From positions 1-7,940 of the IMG/VR virus record IMGVR_UViG_2563366923_000002: a stretch of 7,940 nt of DNA. One strand, 5' to 3'. Below, in pieces: positions 1 through 7,940 of the stretch (its first letter is position 1; every line of letters begins with the position of its first letter). The notes beneath the pieces are model-generated. The model did not search any database. It was not told where the DNA came from and worked only from the letters and a program-made list of their open reading frames with translations. This DNA comes from a virus (Duplodnaviria > Heunggongvirae > Uroviricota > Caudoviricetes). The position numbers were made by a program, and so were the translations under genes.

Positions 1-1152
1 ATGCTCACCGTTAAGCAGATTGAAGCAGCAAAGCCGAAAGAAAAACCATACCGCCTTCTCGATGGTAATGGCCTGTACCTTTATGTTCCTGTATCCGGGA
101 AAAAGGTATGGCAGCTTCGCTACAAGATTGACGGTAAGGAGAAAATCCTGACCGTCGGAAAATATCCGCTTATGACTTTGCAGGAAGCAAGGGATAAGGC
201 ATGGACTGCGAGGAAAGACATCTCGGTTGGCATCGATCCGGTAAAGGCGAAAAAGGCTTCGTCTAACAACAATTCATTTAGTGCGATTTACAAGGAATGG
301 TACGAGCACAAGAAGCAAGTCTGGTCAGTAGGCTATGCAACTGAACTTGCAAAAATGTTTGATGACGACATTTTACCTATCATCGGCGGCCTTGAAATTC
401 AGGATATTGAGCCGATGCAACTGCTGGAAGTAATCCGCAGATTTGAAGATCGCGGTGCAATGGAACGAGCCAACAAAGCACGCAGAAGATGCGGCGAGGT
501 TTTCCGTTACGCTATTGTCACCGGTAGGGCTAAATATAACCCGGCACCTGACCTTGCTGACGCCATGAAGGGATACCGCAAGAAGAACTTCCCGTTTTTA
601 CCTGCCGACCAGATCCCAGCATTCAATAAAGCACTGGCAACATTTTCAGGAAGTATCGTATCGCTTATTGCGACTAAAGTTTTACGCTACACAGCCCTCA
701 GAACAAAAGAGCTTCGTTCCATGCTATGGAAGAACGTCGATTTTGAAAACAGGATTATCACCATCGACGCCAGTGTGATGAAGGGCCGCAAGATTCATGT
801 AGTACCGATGTCAGACCAGGTGATTGAACTTCTCACTACGCTAAGCTCAATCACTAAACCAGTGTCAGAGTTTGTTTTTGCCGGGCGCAACGATAAGAAG
901 AAGCCAATCTGCGAGAACGCGGTATTGCTTGTGATCAAACAAATTGGCTATGAAGGGCTGGAAAGCGGTCACGGATTCAGGCATGAATTCAGCACGATTA
1001 TGAACGAGCACGAATGGCCTGCTGATGCTATTGAAGTGCAACTGGCACATGCCAACGGCGGATCTGTGCGCGGTATTTACAACCATGCGCAGTATCTCGA
1101 TAAGCGCAGGGAGATGATGCAGTGGTGGGCGGACTGGATTGATGGGAAATGA
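1..1152 (+). CDS. intS: Phage integrase, P4-family tyrosine recombinase (383 aa)
   Basis: N-terminus MLTVKQIEAAKPKEKPYRLLDGNGLYLYV is the arm-binding domain signature of P4-like integrases. The C-terminal catalytic region has R (LRTKELR), HGFRHEF and the tyrosine in VRGIYNHAQY. The translation matches E. coli prophage integrase IntS as I recall it (memory, not a search). Stop TGA at 1150-1152. Confidence 0.93.
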   Translation: MLTVKQIEAAKPKEKPYRLLDGNGLYLYVPVSGKKVWQLRYKIDGKEKILTVGKYPLMTLQEARDKAWTARKDISVGIDPVKAKKASSNNNSFSAIYKEWYEHKKQVWSVGYATELAKMFDDDILPIIGGLEIQDIEPMQLLEVIRRFEDRGAMERANKARRRCGEVFRYAIVTGRAKYNPAPDLADAMKGYRKKNFPFLPADQIPAFNKALATFSGSIVSLIATKVLRYTALRTKELRSMLWKNVDFENRIITIDASVMKGRKIHVVPMSDQVIELLTTLSSITKPVSEFVFAGRNDKKKPICENAVLLVIKQIGYEGLESGHGFRHEFSTIMNEHEWPADAIEVQLAHANGGSVRGIYNHAQYLDKRREMMQWWADWIDGK

Positions 1153-1155
1153 TTA

Positions 1156-1177
1156 GACATTTTCTCTAGAAAATGTC
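1156..1177 (+). terminator. Inverted repeat GACATTTT-N6-AAAATGTC 4 nt after the int stop, followed by GCGCGCTTTTCAC; weak candidate int terminator or protein-binding palindrome
   Basis: Perfect 8-bp arms with a 6-nt loop (CTCTAG) read directly from the sequence. The stem is AT-rich and the T run is short and offset, so terminator function is uncertain. Confidence 0.3.
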
Positions 1178-1236
1178 TGCGCGCTTTTCACTCAACTTTA
1201 TTTCCACACTATAAAAACACAGAATCATAAGGAAAA

Positions 1237-1266
1237 TTTGGAGGTATCTACAAAACTTGATAATAT
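1237..1266 (+). promoter_or_regulatory. Possible sigma70-type promoter for the acyltransferase gene (TTGGAG, 17-bp spacer, TAATAT)
   Basis: Hexamers read by eye about 45 bp upstream of the ATG at 1308. Both are imperfect matches to consensus; no experimental basis. Confidence 0.2.
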
Positions 1267-1307
1267 CGTGACATTTTCACAAACAGAGCAACAGGATAGT
1301 AGCCAAG

Positions 1308-2372
1308 ATGAAATCTAGCACCAAACAAGATGTAGGGATACAATATTTAAGGGGGGTATCTGCTTTATATGTCGTATTTTTCCATTTTAGAGAGTTTTTA
1401 GATAATTTTTTGCCAATAGCTATGTTGGGTCAAAAATTTTTTAGCAATGGCGCTTTCGGTGTTGATATGTTTTTTATAATTAGCGGATATATTATTTCTC
1501 TTTCAACAGAAAAAAAAGACAACTCAATTGTTAAGGGATATATCATAAAAAGATTTTTCAGAATATATCCTGCTTATTTCATAGCACTCTCTATTTTGAT
1601 TATTTTATCCCCAATAAAATATTCTCACCATGATATTTTACGTTCATTTATGATGATCCACCCTGATTATCAATATAATGCACCTTACTTTGGCTATGGT
1701 GTACTATTTACAGCATGGACATTAACATACGAGATATATTTTTATATAATATTTCTAATAGGTATGTTTTTCTCACACAAACATCGCATTATATTTACAT
1801 CAACAATTGCAATATTTGCTATGATATCAATACAGCTTATTTTCAACAAATCAATAAACATTTTCCATCAGGAACAAATTAAAAATGGCGCGGGGATATT
1901 GAATGTCCCAGGAAATATAATGGTTATAGACTTTATATATGGAATGTTTATTTATAAGATTAGAAATCATTTAAAATTAAATAAATATTCTATCGCAATA
2001 TCATTTTTACTTATATCAATTGGATTTATAACAATACAATCAGGAGTAAACGCTGGGCATGGTCCACTGCAATACGGGCTTTACTCCCTAATGATTGTTC
2101 TAGGGGTTGTTATGTACGAGAAAAATAACAAAATTACCGAGATTAAGCCATTGGTTTTTCTTGGAGATATCTCATACTCAGTTTATTTGTATCATGTGAT
2201 AATTGCTACATGTGCATATTCACTCCTATTAAAAATAGGATTTTCAGGATTATCTATGTTCTCTATGATGACAGTTTTATCAATATTTCTTGCGTATATT
2301 TCATATGTTTTAATTGAAGTTCCATCAGTTAAGGTAGGGCATTTAATGTTAAAAAAACAAACGAAAGGTTAA
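1308..2372 (+). CDS. Acyltransferase family 3 integral membrane protein, likely O-antigen/LPS O-acetyltransferase (lysogenic conversion, Oac-like), 354 aa
   Basis: The N-terminal segment IQYLRGVSALYVVFFHF carries the conserved Arg and His arrangement of the first transmembrane helix of acyltransferase-3 enzymes. The whole protein is strongly hydrophobic with many predicted helices. Its position between int and tailspike matches the oac position in Sf6-type phages. Codon usage is extremely AT-rich. Confidence 0.85.
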   Translation: MKSSTKQDVGIQYLRGVSALYVVFFHFREFLDNFLPIAMLGQKFFSNGAFGVDMFFIISGYIISLSTEKKDNSIVKGYIIKRFFRIYPAYFIALSILIILSPIKYSHHDILRSFMMIHPDYQYNAPYFGYGVLFTAWTLTYEIYFYIIFLIGMFFSHKHRIIFTSTIAIFAMISIQLIFNKSINIFHQEQIKNGAGILNVPGNIMVIDFIYGMFIYKIRNHLKLNKYSIAISFLLISIGFITIQSGVNAGHGPLQYGLYSLMIVLGVVMYEKNNKITEIKPLVFLGDISYSVYLYHVIIATCAYSLLLKIGFSGLSMFSMMTVLSIFLAYISYVLIEVPSVKVGHLMLKKQTKG

Positions 2373-2448
2373 ATATTAAAAATGTTCTTCATGGACAATA
2401 GTAAAATACCACCTCCTGAGGAGTTTGTTTAGGGATAACAATAAAAAT

Positions 2449-2475
2449 AGGCATCCAAAATGAATGCCTTTTTTA
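2449..2475. terminator. Bidirectional rho-independent terminator between the convergent acyltransferase and tailspike genes
   Basis: An A-rich tract (AATAAAAATA), a stem of about 6 bp (AGGCAT/ATGCCT, 2449-2454 and 2464-2469) with a 9-nt loop, then a T run (2470-2474). It sits exactly between the two convergent stop codons (2372 and 2476) and reads as hairpin plus U-tract on either strand. Confidence 0.5.
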
Positions 2476-3744
2476 TTACTGAATAAGATAAGCAAAAAAG
2501 CTACAGGCCACTTCGCCAGAAGTGTTGTCTCTTACTATTTTTATAGTATTATCGACGACGCCTGCTGAAATATTTGTTGCAACATCAGTTGATGTCGCAA
2601 TCACACCAATAGACGATGTATTTTGAATTGATTTTATTGTTAGAGGAATTTGTACTGATGCAGATCCATCGGGAATGATAATTATTCCTGTTTGTTTATC
2701 TGGATGGCTTGGTGAATCATTATTTATGAGCCTGCAGTTTGTTGGGCCTACGCTCGCCCCTCCATTAATGACTGTATTATATAGATATGCACTAGCACCA
2801 CCACCTGCATTATCAAAAATGGAAATATCTGCCACCCTGCCACTAGTAAGAGTGCAATTAATTACCCTTACATTCGTTACTGAGTTGACAAGAAGATCCC
2901 CGATTTGTTCATCTACGAGGTTGTTATTTTGGATGATGCAATTGTTTAGAGTTACATTAGAAGGTGAAAATATGTTCTTTGTTATTTCCACCCCCCATTT
3001 TCTACTGTCTGAAAATGTAGAACCAACAGCGGTAAACATATCACTTGAGCCTTCAATAATTGCACAAGATGATGTTGAAGAGTTAGATGAAAAATACCCA
3101 CCAACCAACGTTGCTTGTTTACTGTCCTTTACTCTTAGAGCAGGACCAGTAGCAAGATCTGACATAACGTCAATCAACCATGTCCAAGCCACCCCATCAA
3201 TATCTATTGCTGATAGACCAGCGTCTTCGTAACCGCATGAATAAAATAATTCACCATGCAACTTAAGCCCCTCTGTAATTGTTGAGACATCTTTTTTTTC
3301 ACATCTAGCATAAAACCCGGAATAACAATCTGAGTATGTATTCATAAGCATTCTTGAGTTTATTTGCCCGCCTTCAAATCTTATGCCCCAACTGCTAGCT
3401 GCAAACCTGTTATGTCTAATATCAAGCTCAGCTGCAGAATACCCTGATGGTGAATATATGCATGAGTTTAAAAAAGAAAATGAACACTCTTCTATCGTAA
3501 TAAGAGGACTCTTAATTAGAAAGCCAACACAATTACTTCCACTCTTTCCATATTTTGATGTAATGTTTAACCCATAAAATCGACTAAACTCAGAACCTTT
3601 TAATAAAATAAAGCAAGCATCTCCGTTTTTTAATGGCTCAATTACACTAAGTTTTTTAGAATCTCCATAAATACAAACCACGCTGTCTATTTCAATATTA
3701 GAAATGTAATACGGTAGGTTATTTCCTGGAACATAAATTTTTTT
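2476..3744 (-). CDS. Tailspike, C-terminal receptor-binding segment (right-handed beta-helix, putative O-antigen depolymerase); reading frame is -1 relative to the head-binding segment
   Basis: The ORF frame is open back to a TAA at 3748-3750. Read through the A7 tract, the junction gives ...[43 protein letters not shown]..., the DFGA...AIQ...YVPxG motif typical of pectate-lyase-like beta-helix proteins. The rest is rich in Asn/Ser/Thr/Gly repeats typical of beta-helix tailspikes. AT-rich like the adjacent acyltransferase. Stop TAA at 2476-2478. Confidence 0.75.
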
Positions 3745-4298
3745 GTTTTAGAGCTATCACTCTTAATGGCTTGTATGGCCGAATTAAATGCAGCGCTACA
3801 ATCAGTTCCAGGGATGGCTCCAAAATCAGTTATGCTAATAATCTCTTCATTTTTATCATGTTGTGTAGTGGTTATAGATCCGTCATGCGGCTGCTTTACG
3901 AAAACAACGTGATCATTAACAAGACCTGTTAATGTATCTGATTGTAGTTCACGTTTCAGCATATCAGGGTCATACTTCAGCACATTCGGAAAATAGAACT
4001 GCTGCGAACCGTACGCATCATAAACAGCCATAGAATGGCCTTGCACAGTTACGAACTTGGCAATCTGTCCGTTATATACGGGGTAACCTGCAGCGTTAAT
4101 GATGATTGGTTGCGATACAGGAACGTGAGAGCCGTCTTCGTTCTCTACATAAACCTGAATCTGGTTTTCAGAATTTACCGGGTCAGTGTCAATTTTACCG
4201 ATATAAATTTTGCCATTGGCTACGGCTTTAAAAGAACGAGCCATAGTGAAGAGTTGCGAAGGCATGCTGACCACAACATTTGCGGTGATATCTGACAT
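3687..4298 (-). CDS. Tailspike, N-terminal head-binding domain segment (P22 gp9-like); terminates prematurely at TAG 3687-3689 after the frame break
   Basis: Translation from the ATG at 4296-4298 gives [42 protein letters not shown]...[17 protein letters not shown]...NVLKYDPD, a close match to the P22 tailspike N-terminus as recalled from memory ([42 protein letters not shown]...). GGAG lies 6-7 nt upstream of this ATG. The ORF-track start at 4346 adds 16 unlikely leader residues. Confidence 0.9.
3738..3744 (-). other. A7 homopolymer (coding strand A AAA AAA) where the tailspike reading frame breaks; candidate -1 ribosomal frameshift or slipped-strand site, or a sequencing or decay indel
   Basis: The upstream frame reads ...ACA AAA AAA TTT ATG... 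(TKKFM) and stops 17 codons later. The downstream frame reads AAA AAA ATT TAT GTT (KKIYV) and continues for about 420 codons. One extra A or a -1 slip fuses them. Confidence 0.6.
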
Positions 4299-4323
4299 TT
4301 CATTGCTCCAGACGAATGATATG

Positions 4324-4346
4324 ATGCAACCATGATGTGATTGCAT
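4324..4346. promoter_or_regulatory. Palindrome ATGCAA-N11-TTGCAT (extended imperfect 21-bp dyad TGCAACCATGATGTGATTGCA) in the divergent mnt/tailspike control region; candidate repressor operator
   Basis: Inverted repeat read directly from the sequence, 26-48 bp upstream of the tailspike ATG and upstream of the Mnt-like gene. P22 Mnt is known to bind a palindromic operator, but this sequence is not the P22 operator as I remember it. Confidence 0.3.
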
Positions 4347-4419
4347 ACCGAAATGGTACTATTGAGTATTTATCCAGTAGGTTACGATGCCATTCCACCC
4401 AACTGGTGAGGCATCAAGG

Positions 4420-4680
4420 ATGTACAGCAAATACGACGAGGCGCAGTTTCACTTGAGACTTCCGCATGAACTCCACGCGAAAATTAAGCAGCGTGCGAAG
4501 ATGAATAACAGGTCGCTGAACTCAGAGATAATTGCAGCGATTGAGGAATCATTGGATAAACAAAGCTCTGCATCAGTTTACATTGACGATGCAGAGCGTA
4601 TGGCAGAACAACAATCTGATATGGTTAAGAAAATTGTCTTTGATACGCTCAAGAAGCTATATAAAAAAGACAGCAGATAA
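4420..4680 (+). CDS. mnt: Mnt-like ribbon-helix-helix transcriptional repressor (Arc/MetJ superfamily)
   Basis: FHLRLPHELHAKIKQRAKMNNRSLNSEIIAAIEESL and DAERMAEQQSDMVKKIVFDTLKKLYKK align with P22 Mnt (FNFRMPMEVREKLKFRAEANGRSMNSELLQIVQDAL ... DAERLADEQSELVKKMVFDTLKDLYKK, from memory). The ORF is open from the ATG at 4387; the ATG at 4420 (MYSKYDEAQFHLRLP) fits the Mnt alignment better. Either start is possible. Confidence 0.85.
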   Translation: MYSKYDEAQFHLRLPHELHAKIKQRAKMNNRSLNSEIIAAIEESLDKQSSASVYIDDAERMAEQQSDMVKKIVFDTLKKLYKKDSR

Positions 4681-4700
4681 CCATCCGTTACGGAGGATTT

Positions 4701-4778
4701 ATGCACAGAGATATGCTGAATATTGCGTTCTACATATTTGGTTTTTACACGTTCCTGGTGTTTGCGAAGCTATTCTGA
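4701..4778 (+). CDS. Hypothetical 25-aa hydrophobic peptide (MHRDMLNIAFYIFGFYTFLVFAKLF), possible small single-pass membrane protein
   Basis: GGAGG at 4692-4696 lies 4 nt before the ATG, 21 nt downstream of the mnt stop on the same strand. The peptide has a charged N-terminus followed by an 18-residue hydrophobic stretch. It is too short for the ORF track and has no homology support. Confidence 0.3.
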   Translation: MHRDMLNIAFYIFGFYTFLVFAKLF

Positions 4779-6479
4779 CAGCGCATCAGACTTAGCCCCC
4801 TGAGTCAGGGCGTTAATGGCCTTTTGTGCCTGCTGCATGGCTTTCTCGAACGCTGTTGATCCGCGTGGGGTGTTTGCCATTCGGAGCATTGCATTTCTGA
4901 ATGGCTCGCTCTCATAGGCGCGAGTAAGAAGTCCGTAGCTTACCGCTGCGCCAGTTGTCGCAGGGTTCATTGCCGTCCCATACCCGATAATGAACGGGAT
5001 GGTTTGCTGCCCTGTTGGTGTTGTTACTGCCGCTTTTGCAGCCTGCTGCGTGGATTGCAGGTAGTTTTTCAATCCTTTCAGATAAGCAGCGTCCTGCCCC
5101 TTAAATGTGATGCCAGTCTGGTTTTGCAGGATGTTAAGCTGCCGAAGGAACTGGTCAGGGGATCCGCCAGATTTCTCCATCGCCTTTCCAATGATGCCAT
5201 TGCGCATTTGCGCCCTGCCAACACGACCAACTGAGTTATACAGCGTCTTAATTTCCGATTTGTTCTTGCTGAATAGCATGTTGTTGACAACTTCCGGCGT
5301 CAGATCGCCTTTCATGAGAACATTCTTCAGCCTGGTATTCTTTAGTTTCGCGGCTTCGTCAGCGTAGACGGCATTGGCCTGCTGATATTTACGGAGAGTA
5401 ATAGCACCGCCAGCCAGCACACCAACGCCTAAATCGGTGGCGAGTGCTTCCGCATCATCTTTCGCACTGTTTGCAGCAAGTGATCCAACTGCGTTTTCTG
5501 CTAGAAGGCGAGTTGCCCCCTGAGCAATTCGACCAGCAAGTGTTGGTGACTGTGTTGCCGCTCTCTCAACGCCAGCAGGAGTGAGGTAAGGCAATGCTTC
5601 AGCAAATACCCTTCCCTCTGTCGTTTGTGGAGTCAGCGCGCCTTGCTGAAGGCCAAAGTCCTGCTCTAATCCCTGCGTTGTTACTCGTGGTGCTGGTTGA
5701 TATGTACCATCGCCAATGCCGAGTTTACCTCCAGCCCAAGCCGCCGCGCTTGTTACAGCATCAGTGAGTTCAGCAGGTATGTTCGCTACGTTGATTCCTG
5801 CCTGTAGTAAGCCGCGCCCGGTTTCAGCAAGTCCATTACCAAGGTCAGACATTATTCCGCCTTGCTGCTGAACAGGTTTCGGTGCGACAGAACTTACGGG
5901 TTGAGGTGGCTGCTGACTGGCTGCCTGCTGCTCAATCTGAGCAAATGGATTATTTGGGTCTGACTGCACGCCTGATGCCGATACTTGTTCGGATGACTGT
6001 GCTTCCAGTTGTGCAAACGGGTTGTTAGGGTCTTGCTGAGGATGTACCTTTGCAGAGGTGGCGCGCTGTTCGACTGTTGAGTCTGTCACCGGGTCACCCG
6101 CCCATTGAGCAAAGCGATCATCAACGTAACCGCGGCCTTCAGGTCCTAGCGTATATTCACCACGCTTTGCCTTCATAACGTTGCCGGGACCGTCGTGATA
6201 AGCCTGAAGAGCGTCACGCCAGTTACCAAACTGCTGGTACATCTTTGCCAGATAGCGCGCGCCAGCGTCAGCCTGATATTCGGGGTTTTGCATTTGCTCA
6301 TCGGTATAACCCATATCACGCCATGTCCCAGGCATGACCTGAGTCAATCCTACAGCCCCGGCGGAGCTTACTGCGGCAGGGTTGTAAGAAGACTCCTTGG
6401 CACCCAGTGCAGTCATCAACCCTTCTGGCACACCGTAACGTGCGCCAGCCTGCTCTAACAAATCACGGTAATTAGCCAT
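4770..6479 (-). CDS. Virion internal/ejection-type protein with N-terminal lytic transglycosylase (SLT) domain, 569 aa
   Basis: GAKESSYNPAAVSSAGAVGLTQVMPGTW is the classic SLT motif (catalytic Glu in ES, then S...GA.GL.Q). No signal peptide. It is followed by a Q/P/S-rich linker with a duplicated DPNNPFAQ(L/I)E motif and an Ala/Gly-rich C-terminal region. Its ATG (6477-6479) abuts the TAA stop (6480-6482) of the upstream gene. Confidence 0.8.
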   Translation of the reverse strand: MANYRDLLEQAGARYGVPEGLMTALGAKESSYNPAAVSSAGAVGLTQVMPGTWRDMGYTDEQMQNPEYQADAGARYLAKMYQQFGNWRDALQAYHDGPGNVMKAKRGEYTLGPEGRGYVDDRFAQWAGDPVTDSTVEQRATSAKVHPQQDPNNPFAQLEAQSSEQVSASGVQSDPNNPFAQIEQQAASQQPPQPVSSVAPKPVQQQGGIMSDLGNGLAETGRGLLQAGINVANIPAELTDAVTSAAAWAGGKLGIGDGTYQPAPRVTTQGLEQDFGLQQGALTPQTTEGRVFAEALPYLTPAGVERAATQSPTLAGRIAQGATRLLAENAVGSLAANSAKDDAEALATDLGVGVLAGGAITLRKYQQANAVYADEAAKLKNTRLKNVLMKGDLTPEVVNNMLFSKNKSEIKTLYNSVGRVGRAQMRNGIIGKAMEKSGGSPDQFLRQLNILQNQTGITFKGQDAAYLKGLKNYLQSTQQAAKAAVTTPTGQQTIPFIIGYGTAMNPATTGAAVSYGLLTRAYESEPFRNAMLRMANTPRGSTAFEKAMQQAQKAINALTQGAKSDALSE

Positions 6480-7484
6480 TTACTGCCCCAAAGATGGAAG
6501 ATATCCGTAGCGATTAATGAAGTCGATTGACAGCTCGGGGTGCTGCTTCAGGTAATCTATAGAAGCCTGAGGCGCTTCCACTCGCTTGATACCGTTTTGC
6601 TGAACGTACTTACCAACCGCCTCATTACGCTTCTGGTTGAGCGTGTTCAGGATGACGCCAGCGTTGCGACGAAAGGACTCCTCGCTCTGCGAGTTCTGCA
6701 GCGAACCAACAGCCTGGTCGAGCTTTTTGCCCTCGGCATCAGAAAGTGCGCCCATGCCTCGCATGGCCTGAACCGCTGTCAGGTATGCTTGTGATTTAAA
6801 GGTATCAAGTCGTGCCTGAGTGTCTGCAGCCTGTGAGCCTGGAACGTTGGGGATTACTCCACGTAAGCCTGTAATGCTCTTAAGTGAAGGAGAACTAACG
6901 ATATCGTTCAGAGTGAACATGCTGGTTGTGATGGTGTTGATGCCGTCTTTGTAGCCATCATTTAGCGCTTGCTGCTTCTGCTGCAACTGCTGGTTGTTGG
7001 CTGCTATGCGGCTCTGTATTTCCTGGCGCTTCAGGTCGTTAGTTTCTGCTGATAGCATCCGGTCAAGGCGCTTATTTTCGTTGTTAATGCGGTTTGTTTC
7101 TGCGTCCAGGTTAATGCGCTGCTGACCTAAATTCGCCTGGATATCTTGTCCGCGCATTGTGATTGCCTGATTCCGAGCGGCGGTTTGCGAATCCAGATCC
7201 TGACCGCGCATGGTAACCTGTCGACCCTGCATTTTATCCTGTAGGTCAAAGTATTTTTCGGGCCCGAGACTGTTCATCCCCAGGTGATCGACAAATTCGC
7301 CGAACTGCCGCGGGTTCTGTTGGTACATCTGAGCGACGTCATGAGGATTAACGCCAACACGAGCTAACTCACCGGCGTTGTTTTGCAGCCATGATTGCAT
7401 TGCTTCTGGAGAAGATGACGCAAGACGTGCGCCAGCCGCTAATGTACCGATAGAATTACGCTGGTCTTCATCAATGAATCCCAT
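6480..7484 (-). CDS. Putative virion/ejection protein, Gln/Asn-rich with coiled-coil-like repeats, 334 aa; start uncertain, possibly 5'-truncated
   Basis: Long ORF tightly coupled to the downstream SLT gene. Contains a tandem peptide repeat (VTMRGQDLDSQTAARNQ / AITMRGQDIQANLGQQR). The ATG at 7484 has only AGG one nt upstream, and the frame stays open a further 24 codons to a stop at 7557-7559 with no alternative start. Confidence 0.6.
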   Translation of the reverse strand: MGFIDEDQRNSIGTLAAGARLASSSPEAMQSWLQNNAGELARVGVNPHDVAQMYQQNPRQFGEFVDHLGMNSLGPEKYFDLQDKMQGRQVTMRGQDLDSQTAARNQAITMRGQDIQANLGQQRINLDAETNRINNENKRLDRMLSAETNDLKRQEIQSRIAANNQQLQQKQQALNDGYKDGINTITTSMFTLNDIVSSPSLKSITGLRGVIPNVPGSQAADTQARLDTFKSQAYLTAVQAMRGMGALSDAEGKKLDQAVGSLQNSQSEESFRRNAGVILNTLNQKRNEAVGKYVQQNGIKRVEAPQASIDYLKQHPELSIDFINRYGYLPSLGQ

Positions 7485-7606
7485 GCCTTTACGAACGGAT
7501 TCAATCTGGTCTGGATATTGAGTATACCCCTCCGAATGAGACTCAACAAGCTGGAGCTAGACTACCAGCCACCACACCACCAAAGCTAACTGACAGGAGA
7601 ATCCAG

Positions 7607-7692
7607 ATGGATGCACAAACACGCCGCCGCGAACGTCGCGCAGAGAAACAGGCTCAATGGAAAGCAGCAAATCCCCTGTTGGTTGGGGTACT
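7607..7692 (+). pseudogene. N: 5' fragment of a lambda-type N antiterminator gene (arginine-rich boxB-binding peptide), diverging after about codon 28
   Basis: AGGAG at 7595-7599 with 7-nt spacing to the ATG at 7607. Translation MDAQTRRRERRAEKQAQWKAANPLLVGV equals the N-terminus of phage lambda N as I recall it, then continues as unrelated LIQYQRENALCVMQMWCPRTRKTN with a stop at 7763-7765. No nutL boxB hairpin found upstream. Confidence 0.7.
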
Positions 7693-7712
7693 CATTCAGT
7701 ATCAGAGGGAAA

Positions 7713-7940
7713 ATGCGCTATGTGTCATGCAAATGTGGTGCCCAAGGACCAGAAAAACGAACTAAATCTGAAGCGATTTCTTCATGGAATAGTCGAATGA
7801 AAGTATGGGTTTATGATCCAGAAACCATATTAAACGCTGAAGAGCGCAGGAGAACGGAAGTCTATATTCATAACCTTAATGAAGATGGATTTACACCAGT
7901 GCTTGTAAAGGCTACTCCGCAGGAGGTTACCGGCGTGTAA
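7713..7940 (+). CDS. Small protein with Lar-like (restriction alleviation family) C-terminal motif, 75 aa from the ATG at 7713; possibly a truncated or degenerate family member
   Basis: VSCKCGAQGPEKRTKSEAISSWNSR resembles the second zinc-knuckle and C-terminal region of Lar-family proteins (C..CGA.GP...EAI.AWN.R, recalled consensus), but the first CPFCG knuckle is absent. AGAGGG lies 4-5 nt before the ATG. The ORF-track version starts at 7611 and overlaps the N fragment in another frame, so that upstream part is probably not real. Stop TAA at 7938-7940. Confidence 0.4.
   Translation: MRYVSCKCGAQGPEKRTKSEAISSWNSRMKVWVYDPETILNAEERRRTEVYIHNLNEDGFTPVLVKATPQEVTGV

Follow-up and report, generated by a model that had tools for sequence, protein, structure and literature searches.

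What an acyltransferase gene and most of a tailspike gene are doing side by side, next to a phage integrase gene and in a block of DNA far richer in A and T than its surroundings, is the question raised by the 7,940-nucleotide stretch analysed here (positions 1 to 7,940 of the IMG/VR record IMGVR_UViG_2563366923_000002, hereafter the window). A first-pass annotation made from the letters alone had seen in this block a receptor-binding domain exchanged as a cassette together with an enzyme that modifies the O-antigen it recognises. We analysed whether the two genes travel together, what their products are likely to be and whether they could act on the same surface polysaccharide. The window is a cryptic 7.9-kb remnant of a P22/Sf6-like temperate phage lying between argW and dsdC. 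Our reading, to which we attach a probability of about 0.7, is that the block is an exchangeable conversion-and-receptor cassette, composed of an acyltransferase-3 (AT3) O-acetyltransferase and the tailspike receptor part of an argW-integrating P22/Sf6-like phage.

Composition, edges and exchange of the cassette

The G + C content (GC) is 0.330 within positions 1153-3750 and 0.489 outside them, so that the low-GC module first judged by eye is upheld by computation and a uniform composition is ruled out. The best two-breakpoint segmentation divides the window into 1-1140 (GC 0.475), 1141-4000 (0.336) and 4001-7940 (0.499) and beats a uniform model by about 94 log-likelihood units; the AT-rich block is genuine and much stronger than chance would give. 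Codon usage follows the same division, with a GC at third codon positions (GC3) of about 0.25 in the acyltransferase gene (0.248) and in the tailspike segment 2476-3962 (0.254-0.280), against 0.455-0.55 in the neighbouring sequences, namely the head-binding part of the tailspike gene (0.455), int (0.526) and the gp16 and gp20 genes (0.48-0.55). In overall GC the two cassette genes differ, with 29% in the acyltransferase gene and 37% in the tailspike receptor part. Different donors were considered for this reason and rejected, GC3 being equal at 0.25; the gap lies at codon positions 1 and 2 and points to the hydrophobic nature of a membrane protein rather than to a different origin. A GC3 of 0.25 is lower than the 0.29-0.43 found in every comparison locus. 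Cargo genes and receptor parts are AT-rich in P22-like phages generally, and the window cassette is the most extreme case.

The edges of the block were located by comparison with the phages Sf6, IME10 and vB_EcoP-611R6 (hereafter 611R6). DNA homology to them stops at 1144-1148, next to the int stop codon (1150-1152), in agreement with the composition change initially placed near that stop codon, at about 1153. Homology to all three restarts exactly at 3963, corresponding to tailspike residue 113, where the Pfam Head_binding match (residues 1-112) ends; the rise in GC on this side falls around 3880-4000. Since homology to the three phages restarts there, we set the right edge of the cassette at 3963. 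The boundary previously proposed at about 3700 has to be moved accordingly, that position being a break in the reading frame. So delimited, the variable AT-rich cassette spans 1149-3962 (GC 0.335, against 0.49 outside) and comprises the intergenic region, the acyltransferase gene, a terminator and the tailspike from residue 113 on.

Four apparently complete P22-like prophages (L005, L029, L030/L033; L numbers designate the loci compared with the window) allowed the behaviour of this block to be followed on other backbones. Strains carrying a complete prophage include those of the records GCA_038402015.1 and SRR25282082. Scaffold, coat, gp4, gp10, needle, gp7, gp20 and gp16 genes are carried by L029, L030 and L033, and L005 has gp7, gp20 and gp16 within the stretch read. 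Compared with the window, their backbones show 2.5-4% divergence over int 1-957 and 1-9% beyond about 4333, the gp16 and gp20 segments being partly replaced outright, against only one to three single-base differences over the roughly 3.4 kb from about 958 to 4332. This near-identity on diverged backbones indicates that the 3' end of int, the acyltransferase gene and the whole tailspike gene have spread recently as one block, as the first-pass annotation had supposed for the receptor domain and its enzyme. On these alignments, 1149-3962 is an exchanged cassette in the physical sense, with crossovers in its conserved flanks; int constitutes the left flank, its 3' part (about 958-1152) moving with the cassette. 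Divergence from the other backbones sets in again at the Mnt/Arc-type repressor gene (4420-4680, forward strand; Pfam Arc and Repressor_Mnt), which belongs to the backbone and not to the cassette.

The acyltransferase gene was also found, 99.5% identical, in a P22-like prophage of a second class, inserted beside ybhB/bio (L012, 5455-7127). This class keeps only a 78-nucleotide relic of the 3' end of int (IntS) ahead of the cargo slot, and 687 of 5426 complete E. coli genomes contain sequence matching the relic junction. The cargo in this slot of E. coli E9 (L034, 5001-9235) is a Wzy-like O-antigen polymerase gene, accompanied by a different tailspike. The L012 copy, whose contig ends 62 nucleotides past the acyltransferase gene, was considered as a case of the acyltransferase moving alone; it is better explained by the same slot in a second prophage class with an int relic.

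The acyltransferase and the tailspike receptor part

The acyltransferase gene (1308-2372, forward strand) is an intact open reading frame (ORF) of 354 codons. Its product matches Pfam Acyl_transf_3 (PF01757) at 111 bits (cut-off 31), residues 9-333 covering profile positions 2-325 of 326, and it matches the PHROG family phrog_3333, annotated 'O-acetyltransferase', with an E-value of 8.5e-67. Residues R15 and H26, the FFxISG motif at 55-60, R82 and R85 are invariant in an alignment including Sf6 Oac and twelve relatives. Mutagenesis has shown their counterparts to be essential in OacB, Oac and OafA, the functional AT3 residues including an Arg and a His of the first transmembrane segment (TM1; R14 and H25 in OafA, R47 and H58 in OacB) and, in Oac, R73 and R76 of the RxxR motif (PMC8952252). 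The protein consists of the AT3 domain only, without an SGNH domain, as in Oac. The acyltransferase-3 identity given at first sight is therefore retained, with the catalytic motifs kept; on these motifs the product of 1308-2372 can be assigned to the AT3 family of membrane enzymes, with the catalytic signature of the O-antigen acetylases Oac, OacB and OafA, and it is predicted to be an O-acetyltransferase of a surface polysaccharide. In other prophage types, too, relatives about 40% identical lie at the prophage end and face a receptor-binding gene in convergent orientation; the neighbour is a Peptidase_S74 fibre in one case and, in another, a G7C-type tailspike next to GpJ. None of the deposited phages encodes a relative above about 35%, and a profile search of solved structures returned nothing meaningful, the sole match being Ninjurin-2 (E 0.16).

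A two-way intrinsic terminator (2449-2469), made of a 9-bp stem (AGGCATCCA...TGAATGCCT) with T runs adjoining it on each strand, separates the acyltransferase gene from the convergent tailspike gene (2476-4298, reverse strand). The latter is frameshifted, its two ORFs (3687-4346 and 2476-3681) lying in different frames. Residues 1-112 form a P22-type head-binding domain (3963-4298, reverse strand; Pfam Head_binding PF09008, E 5e-66), which is aligned by Foldseek with those of Sf6 and P22 at 73-90% identity. Its DNA is 88-96% identical to that of Sf6, IME10 and 611R6, and the sequence is matched in 1230 of the 5426 complete E. coli genomes.

The receptor-binding part (2476-3962, reverse strand) consists of a neck, a beta-helix and a C-terminal beta-sandwich. 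Sequence similarity to solved structures is confined to tailspike residues 1-226, with Sf6 gp14 as the best match, and the P22 tailspike chains match only the head-binding domain, up to about residue 123; the earlier impression that the receptor domain is unlike that of P22 was thus correct. An AlphaFold2 model of the intact 607-residue allele, built from a 16-member family alignment, has a mean predicted local distance difference test (pLDDT) score of 80.5, with values mostly above 85-90 for residues 160-607. The receptor part is confidently modelled as a right-handed parallel beta-helix (about 153-535) followed by a C-terminal beta-sandwich (about 535-607). The top Foldseek matches are the Sf6 tailspike structures 7ukj (E 2e-21) and 4urr/2vbm (template modelling score 0.5-0.58, 15-16% identity), followed by other phage tailspikes (P22, HK620, Det7-like and CBA120) and beta-helix glycan enzymes. 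The beta-helical C-terminus anticipated from the sequence is accordingly supported by a model whose best structural match is the Sf6 endorhamnosidase. Sf6-type endorhamnosidases are defined by a catalytic Asp/Glu pair in an inter-subunit cleft and by the cleavage of Rha-Rha linkages. Five acidic residues are invariant in the family of the window receptor domain (E291, E343, D381, D431 and D468); conservation makes them catalytic candidates only.

The receptor-domain family is small, with 16 homologues, the best of which outside its own cluster is 44% identical. It sits behind different N-terminal anchors (P22 head-binding, Tail_spike_N and T7-like fibre), as expected for a horizontally shuffled domain. 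The tailspikes of Shigella phage Ag3 (orf00210), Salmonella phage KKP 3828 and E. coli phage vB_EcolP_P433.1 belong to the same family, with 35-42% identity over the beta-helix, an identity too low to infer the same glycan, and with other anchors; their membership indicates that the domain is common to phage types with different N-terminal anchors. No determined glycan specificity was found for these three tailspikes. Convergent to the closest tailspike relative (P0002, 44%), the cargo slot of locus L015 (6859-8127) encodes a 422-residue protein with no Pfam match, a candidate for an undescribed modifier of surface glycans.

Proposed role of the pair

In the arrangement that we propose, the AT3 O-acetyltransferase is transcribed away from int and the tailspike toward the acetyltransferase, with the two-way terminator between them, and the cassette would move between backbones by homologous recombination in its flanks, that is the 3' end of int on one side and the head-binding domain with mnt on the other. 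By analogy with the oac gene and tailspike of Sf6, the beta-helix would attach to a polysaccharide of the host surface, most likely the O-antigen, and cleave it; the acetyltransferase, presuming that it is expressed, would O-acetylate the same polysaccharide in lysogens. This acetylation may change the serotype and lower the adsorption of the same and related phages, leading to superinfection exclusion. In the window copy, the tailspike is dead through a one-nucleotide deletion in an 8-base run, the acyltransferase still plausibly working.

The nearest known system is the int-oac-tailspike region of Shigella phage Sf6, in which Oac and the tailspike both act on the same O-antigen. The two loci share the Lederbergvirus type, the integrase family (the window int gene is 96% identical to that of Sf6 in DNA across 1-1148), the order and orientations of int, AT3 acyltransferase, terminator and convergent tailspike, the head-binding domain, sequence similarity over tailspike residues 1-226, the overall tailspike fold and the AT3 catalytic motifs. 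They differ by the remoteness of the acyltransferase from Oac, by a beta-helix devoid of sequence similarity past residue 226 (about 15% identity in the structural alignment), by the GC3 of the cassette (0.25 here, 0.39-0.43 in Sf6) and by the status of the window copy as a pseudogenised remnant. The integrase of 611R6 is of the same IntS type, with a tRNA-Arg-CCT gene upstream. Elsewhere, the cargo of this slot also consists of surface-glycan modifiers: gtrABC in Enterobacter, an OafA-like acetylase in 611R6, neuO in CUS-3 and the Wzy-like polymerase in E9. As in the gtrABC system of P22, conversion genes lie between int and the tailspike, and the gtrABC-carrying Enterobacter element encodes a relative of the window receptor domain; the P22 system differs in its proteins and in its chemistry, glucosylation through undecaprenyl-phosphate glucose.

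Several observations weigh against the proposed role. The identity between Sf6 Oac and the acyltransferase is 36% over 118 amino acids, no characterised relative of the acyltransferase exceeds 36% local identity, and its best relative outside its own cluster, among 5.8 billion proteins, is 43% identical. The tailspike receptor part likewise has no characterised close relative (best identity 44%), neither protein has a match in NCBIfam, and no promoter passed a sigma-70 scan of the spacer 1153-1307 upstream of the acyltransferase gene. In L029, a 10-bp deletion (window-equivalent 2001-2010) cuts the acyltransferase to 237 amino acids and leaves the tailspike intact; as this prophage is otherwise complete, the enzyme is dispensable for the phage. 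Relatives of the receptor domain are paired with gtrABC, with the 422-residue protein or with nothing, so the pairing is not conserved at depth and a functional match is not demonstrated by co-evolution. Finally, the retention of an intact acyltransferase ORF in the remnant copies described below is suggestive, but these copies are near-clonal and their intact ORF is consequently no evidence of selection. Apart from this weighing, L029 constitutes a natural acyltransferase-minus control.

The lack of close relatives of either protein makes a new sugar specificity plausible, as the first-pass annotation had suggested for the receptor domain. The sole named carrier, E. coli strain 730V1, is typed O19:H7, with no capsule mentioned. 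The text of a review of E. coli O-antigens mentions O19 only for an O-unit with more than one L-rhamnose (L-Rha), and says nothing of O-acetylation; several L-Rha residues would fit an Sf6-like endorhamnosidase, which we regard as a weak lead only. A survey of tailspike modularity describes no O19 phage receptor protein or conversion gene. It is a tentative possibility, which we hold well below the general cassette reading, that the pair is a previously unrecognised depolymerase and acetylase for an E. coli O-antigen such as O19, and that the acetylase, which has stayed intact in a decaying prophage found in about 100 assemblies, has been domesticated and makes an unrecorded acetylated O-subtype.

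A target other than the O-antigen, namely a capsule (K antigen) or another exopolysaccharide as in CUS-3, seems unlikely to us. In CUS-3, the slot that separates int from a convergent tailspike gene likewise contains an acetyltransferase gene, neuO, and NeuO modifies the polymer that the K1 endosialidase tailspike of this phage degrades. The source names of acyltransferase relatives include 'exopolysaccharide production protein', and the PHROG family that best matches the whole tailspike carries a colanic-acid degradation annotation, though this match covers residues 1-210 only. However, the closest structural match of the window tailspike is an O-antigen endorhamnosidase, the characterised AT3-only enzymes in the slot, such as Sf6 Oac, act on O-antigen, and the O19:H7 typing of the named carrier comes without mention of a capsule. 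NeuO was not among the relatives found for the acyltransferase; it is not an AT3 protein but a hexapeptide-repeat acetyltransferase, phase-variable through heptanucleotide repeats, which are annotated in neuO in the CUS-3 record and absent from the window acyltransferase gene.

Slightly less probable still is that the two genes are merely neighbours in a recombination hot-spot, each AT-rich on its own account, the acyltransferase modifying something unrelated to the receptor of the tailspike. The slot takes many unrelated cargos, the relatives of the receptor domain are accompanied by different cargo or by none, cargo and receptor parts are AT-rich throughout these phages, and L029 combines an intact tailspike with the absence of a working acyltransferase. 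On the other side, GC3 is equally extreme (0.25) in both genes and below that of any comparison locus, at least four backbones have inherited the two as a single block with hardly any variation, and Sf6 offers an established precedent of an enzyme and a tailspike acting on the same O-antigen. We consequently retain the exchangeable conversion-and-receptor cassette as the preferred reading of the locus.

The window copy, a decaying remnant

The cassette of the window lies in an element that no longer forms phage. No head, replication or lysis gene is left in the 7,940 bases according to the ORF and Pfam reading, and the remnant is cryptic because these genes are gone. Two loci (L004 and L006) are 100% identical to the window across all 7940 bases. 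In L004, the argW-side host genes yfdC and mlaA stand on the left and dsdC on the right, and in L001 the tRNA-Arg gene (argW) is found upstream of int.

The tailspike, whose break went unnoticed in the first-pass annotation, is a frameshifted pseudogene in the window. The intact allele is a coding sequence of 1824 nucleotides for 607 amino acids and is present in 730V1 at 99.9% identity. In the window, an A/T homopolymer run (3738-3744, reverse strand) has 7 bases instead of the 8 of intact copies and thereby breaks the reading frame after K187, leaving an N-terminal product of 203 amino acids (187 native and 16 out-of-frame residues) followed by a separate 401-residue ORF; one ORF ends at 3687 and the other restarts at 3681. 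Recognition of a receptor by the phage, as first envisaged, is thus inapplicable to the window copy, a pseudogene within a remnant. The 7-base allele is shared by L004, L006, L007, L009, L010 and L011 and the 8-base allele by L003, L005 and L008; the former occurs with truncated-gp20 and further-deleted remnants and never with complete prophages, and the intact 607-residue protein was found in 10 assembly blocks. Altogether, some 108-119 blocks carry the acyltransferase gene or one of the two tailspike alleles. A truly intact tailspike, with a break due to sequencing or assembly error, was considered, since homopolymers invite such errors and only one base differs; it is very improbable and was rejected. 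Six of the nine independent loci, which come from different projects and assemblers, have the 7-base allele, the exact 401-residue product is encoded in 109 assembly blocks, the allele follows the structure of the elements, and L009 has a second, independent frameshift (+C at window-equivalent 2991) in the tailspike receptor part.

With the deletion, the upstream ORF (AC A AAA AAA TTT) contains a canonical slippery heptamer, A_AAA_AAA, set in its X_XXY_YYZ frame; a ribosome slipping by -1 at this point is predicted to read K-K-I-Y-V-P, which would give back the sequence of the intact tailspike exactly. The heptamer is probably a mere consequence of the deletion in the 8-base run; on this sequence context, a low level of full-length tailspike through a -1 slip is possible.

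The remnants of 730V1 (L008/L031), of L003/L028/L032, of the window (L004, L006 and L007) and of L009 have a common right end, composed of a fragment of an N gene, the Lar gene and the truncated dsdC, and are set apart by nested internal deletions; they therefore descend from one eroding integration. The acyltransferase ORF is intact in all these loci and the tailspike is broken in most of them. As the tailspike is dead and the ORF and motifs of the acyltransferase are intact, the acyltransferase gene alone of the two may plausibly still function. A comparable situation is known at argW in E. coli K-12, where CPS-53 is a decayed cryptic remnant that keeps int and conversion genes.

The other features of the window belong to its flanks. 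The IntS-type tyrosine integrase gene (1-1152, forward strand) has the Pfam domains Phage_integrase, Phage_int_M and Arm-DNA-bind_3. Directly upstream of intS, L006 (1-4000) and L007 (300-4300) contain a P4-like satellite with primase, Psu and Ogr/Delta genes, so that in some carriers two elements stand in tandem. Directly 3' of the int stop codon, a perfect hairpin with a 10-bp stem (AGACATTTTC tcta GAAAATGTCT; 1155-1178, forward strand), read from the sequence, is likely the int terminator or a boundary sequence. In strain 730V1, the IS5-family insertion sequence ISKpn26 (L001, 3054-4262) is inserted at CTAG in the loop of this hairpin; its junction corresponds to window positions 1162-1169, between int and the acyltransferase gene, and the insertion possibly affects transcription of the latter in this strain.

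On the right, the gp16-like ejection protein (4770-6479, reverse strand), identified by the Pfam scan of ORFs, has 569 amino acids with an N-terminal SLT lytic-transglycosylase domain, and the gp16 proteins of Sf6, L005, L029 and L030 have 662-665 amino acids with no SLT match on record. Homology of the gene to these four is interrupted at about 5400 and again at about 5867, indicating mosaicism within the gp16 gene. A truncated gp20-like protein (6480-7484, reverse strand) follows, with 334 amino acids against 431-464 elsewhere. Beyond a junction at about 7524 lie a lambda-N-like N-terminal fragment (MDAQTRRRERRAEKQAQWKAAN, 7607-7765) and a segment (7686-7929) 99% identical to a portion of the Lar-like gene of Sf6, the last bases of the window overlapping the truncated dsdC.

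In sequence, both cassette proteins are new. The gene arrangement, the way the cassette is exchanged and its presumed biology all follow the textbook picture of P22-like phages, and the understanding of such systems is unchanged by this finding. The loci form a clean natural series, from complete prophage to several nested remnants, which shows conversion genes outliving their phage: the tailspike has decayed in most copies via two independent frameshifts, and the acetylase has been lost once, in an otherwise complete prophage. If the proposed functions hold, the cassette would supply a further specificity pair for the catalogue in which tailspike depolymerases and O-antigen acetylases are collected, a catalogue of use for serogroup-specific phage tools, for glycan typing and for revealing hidden O-antigen subtypes that are missed by serotyping based on O-antigen gene clusters.

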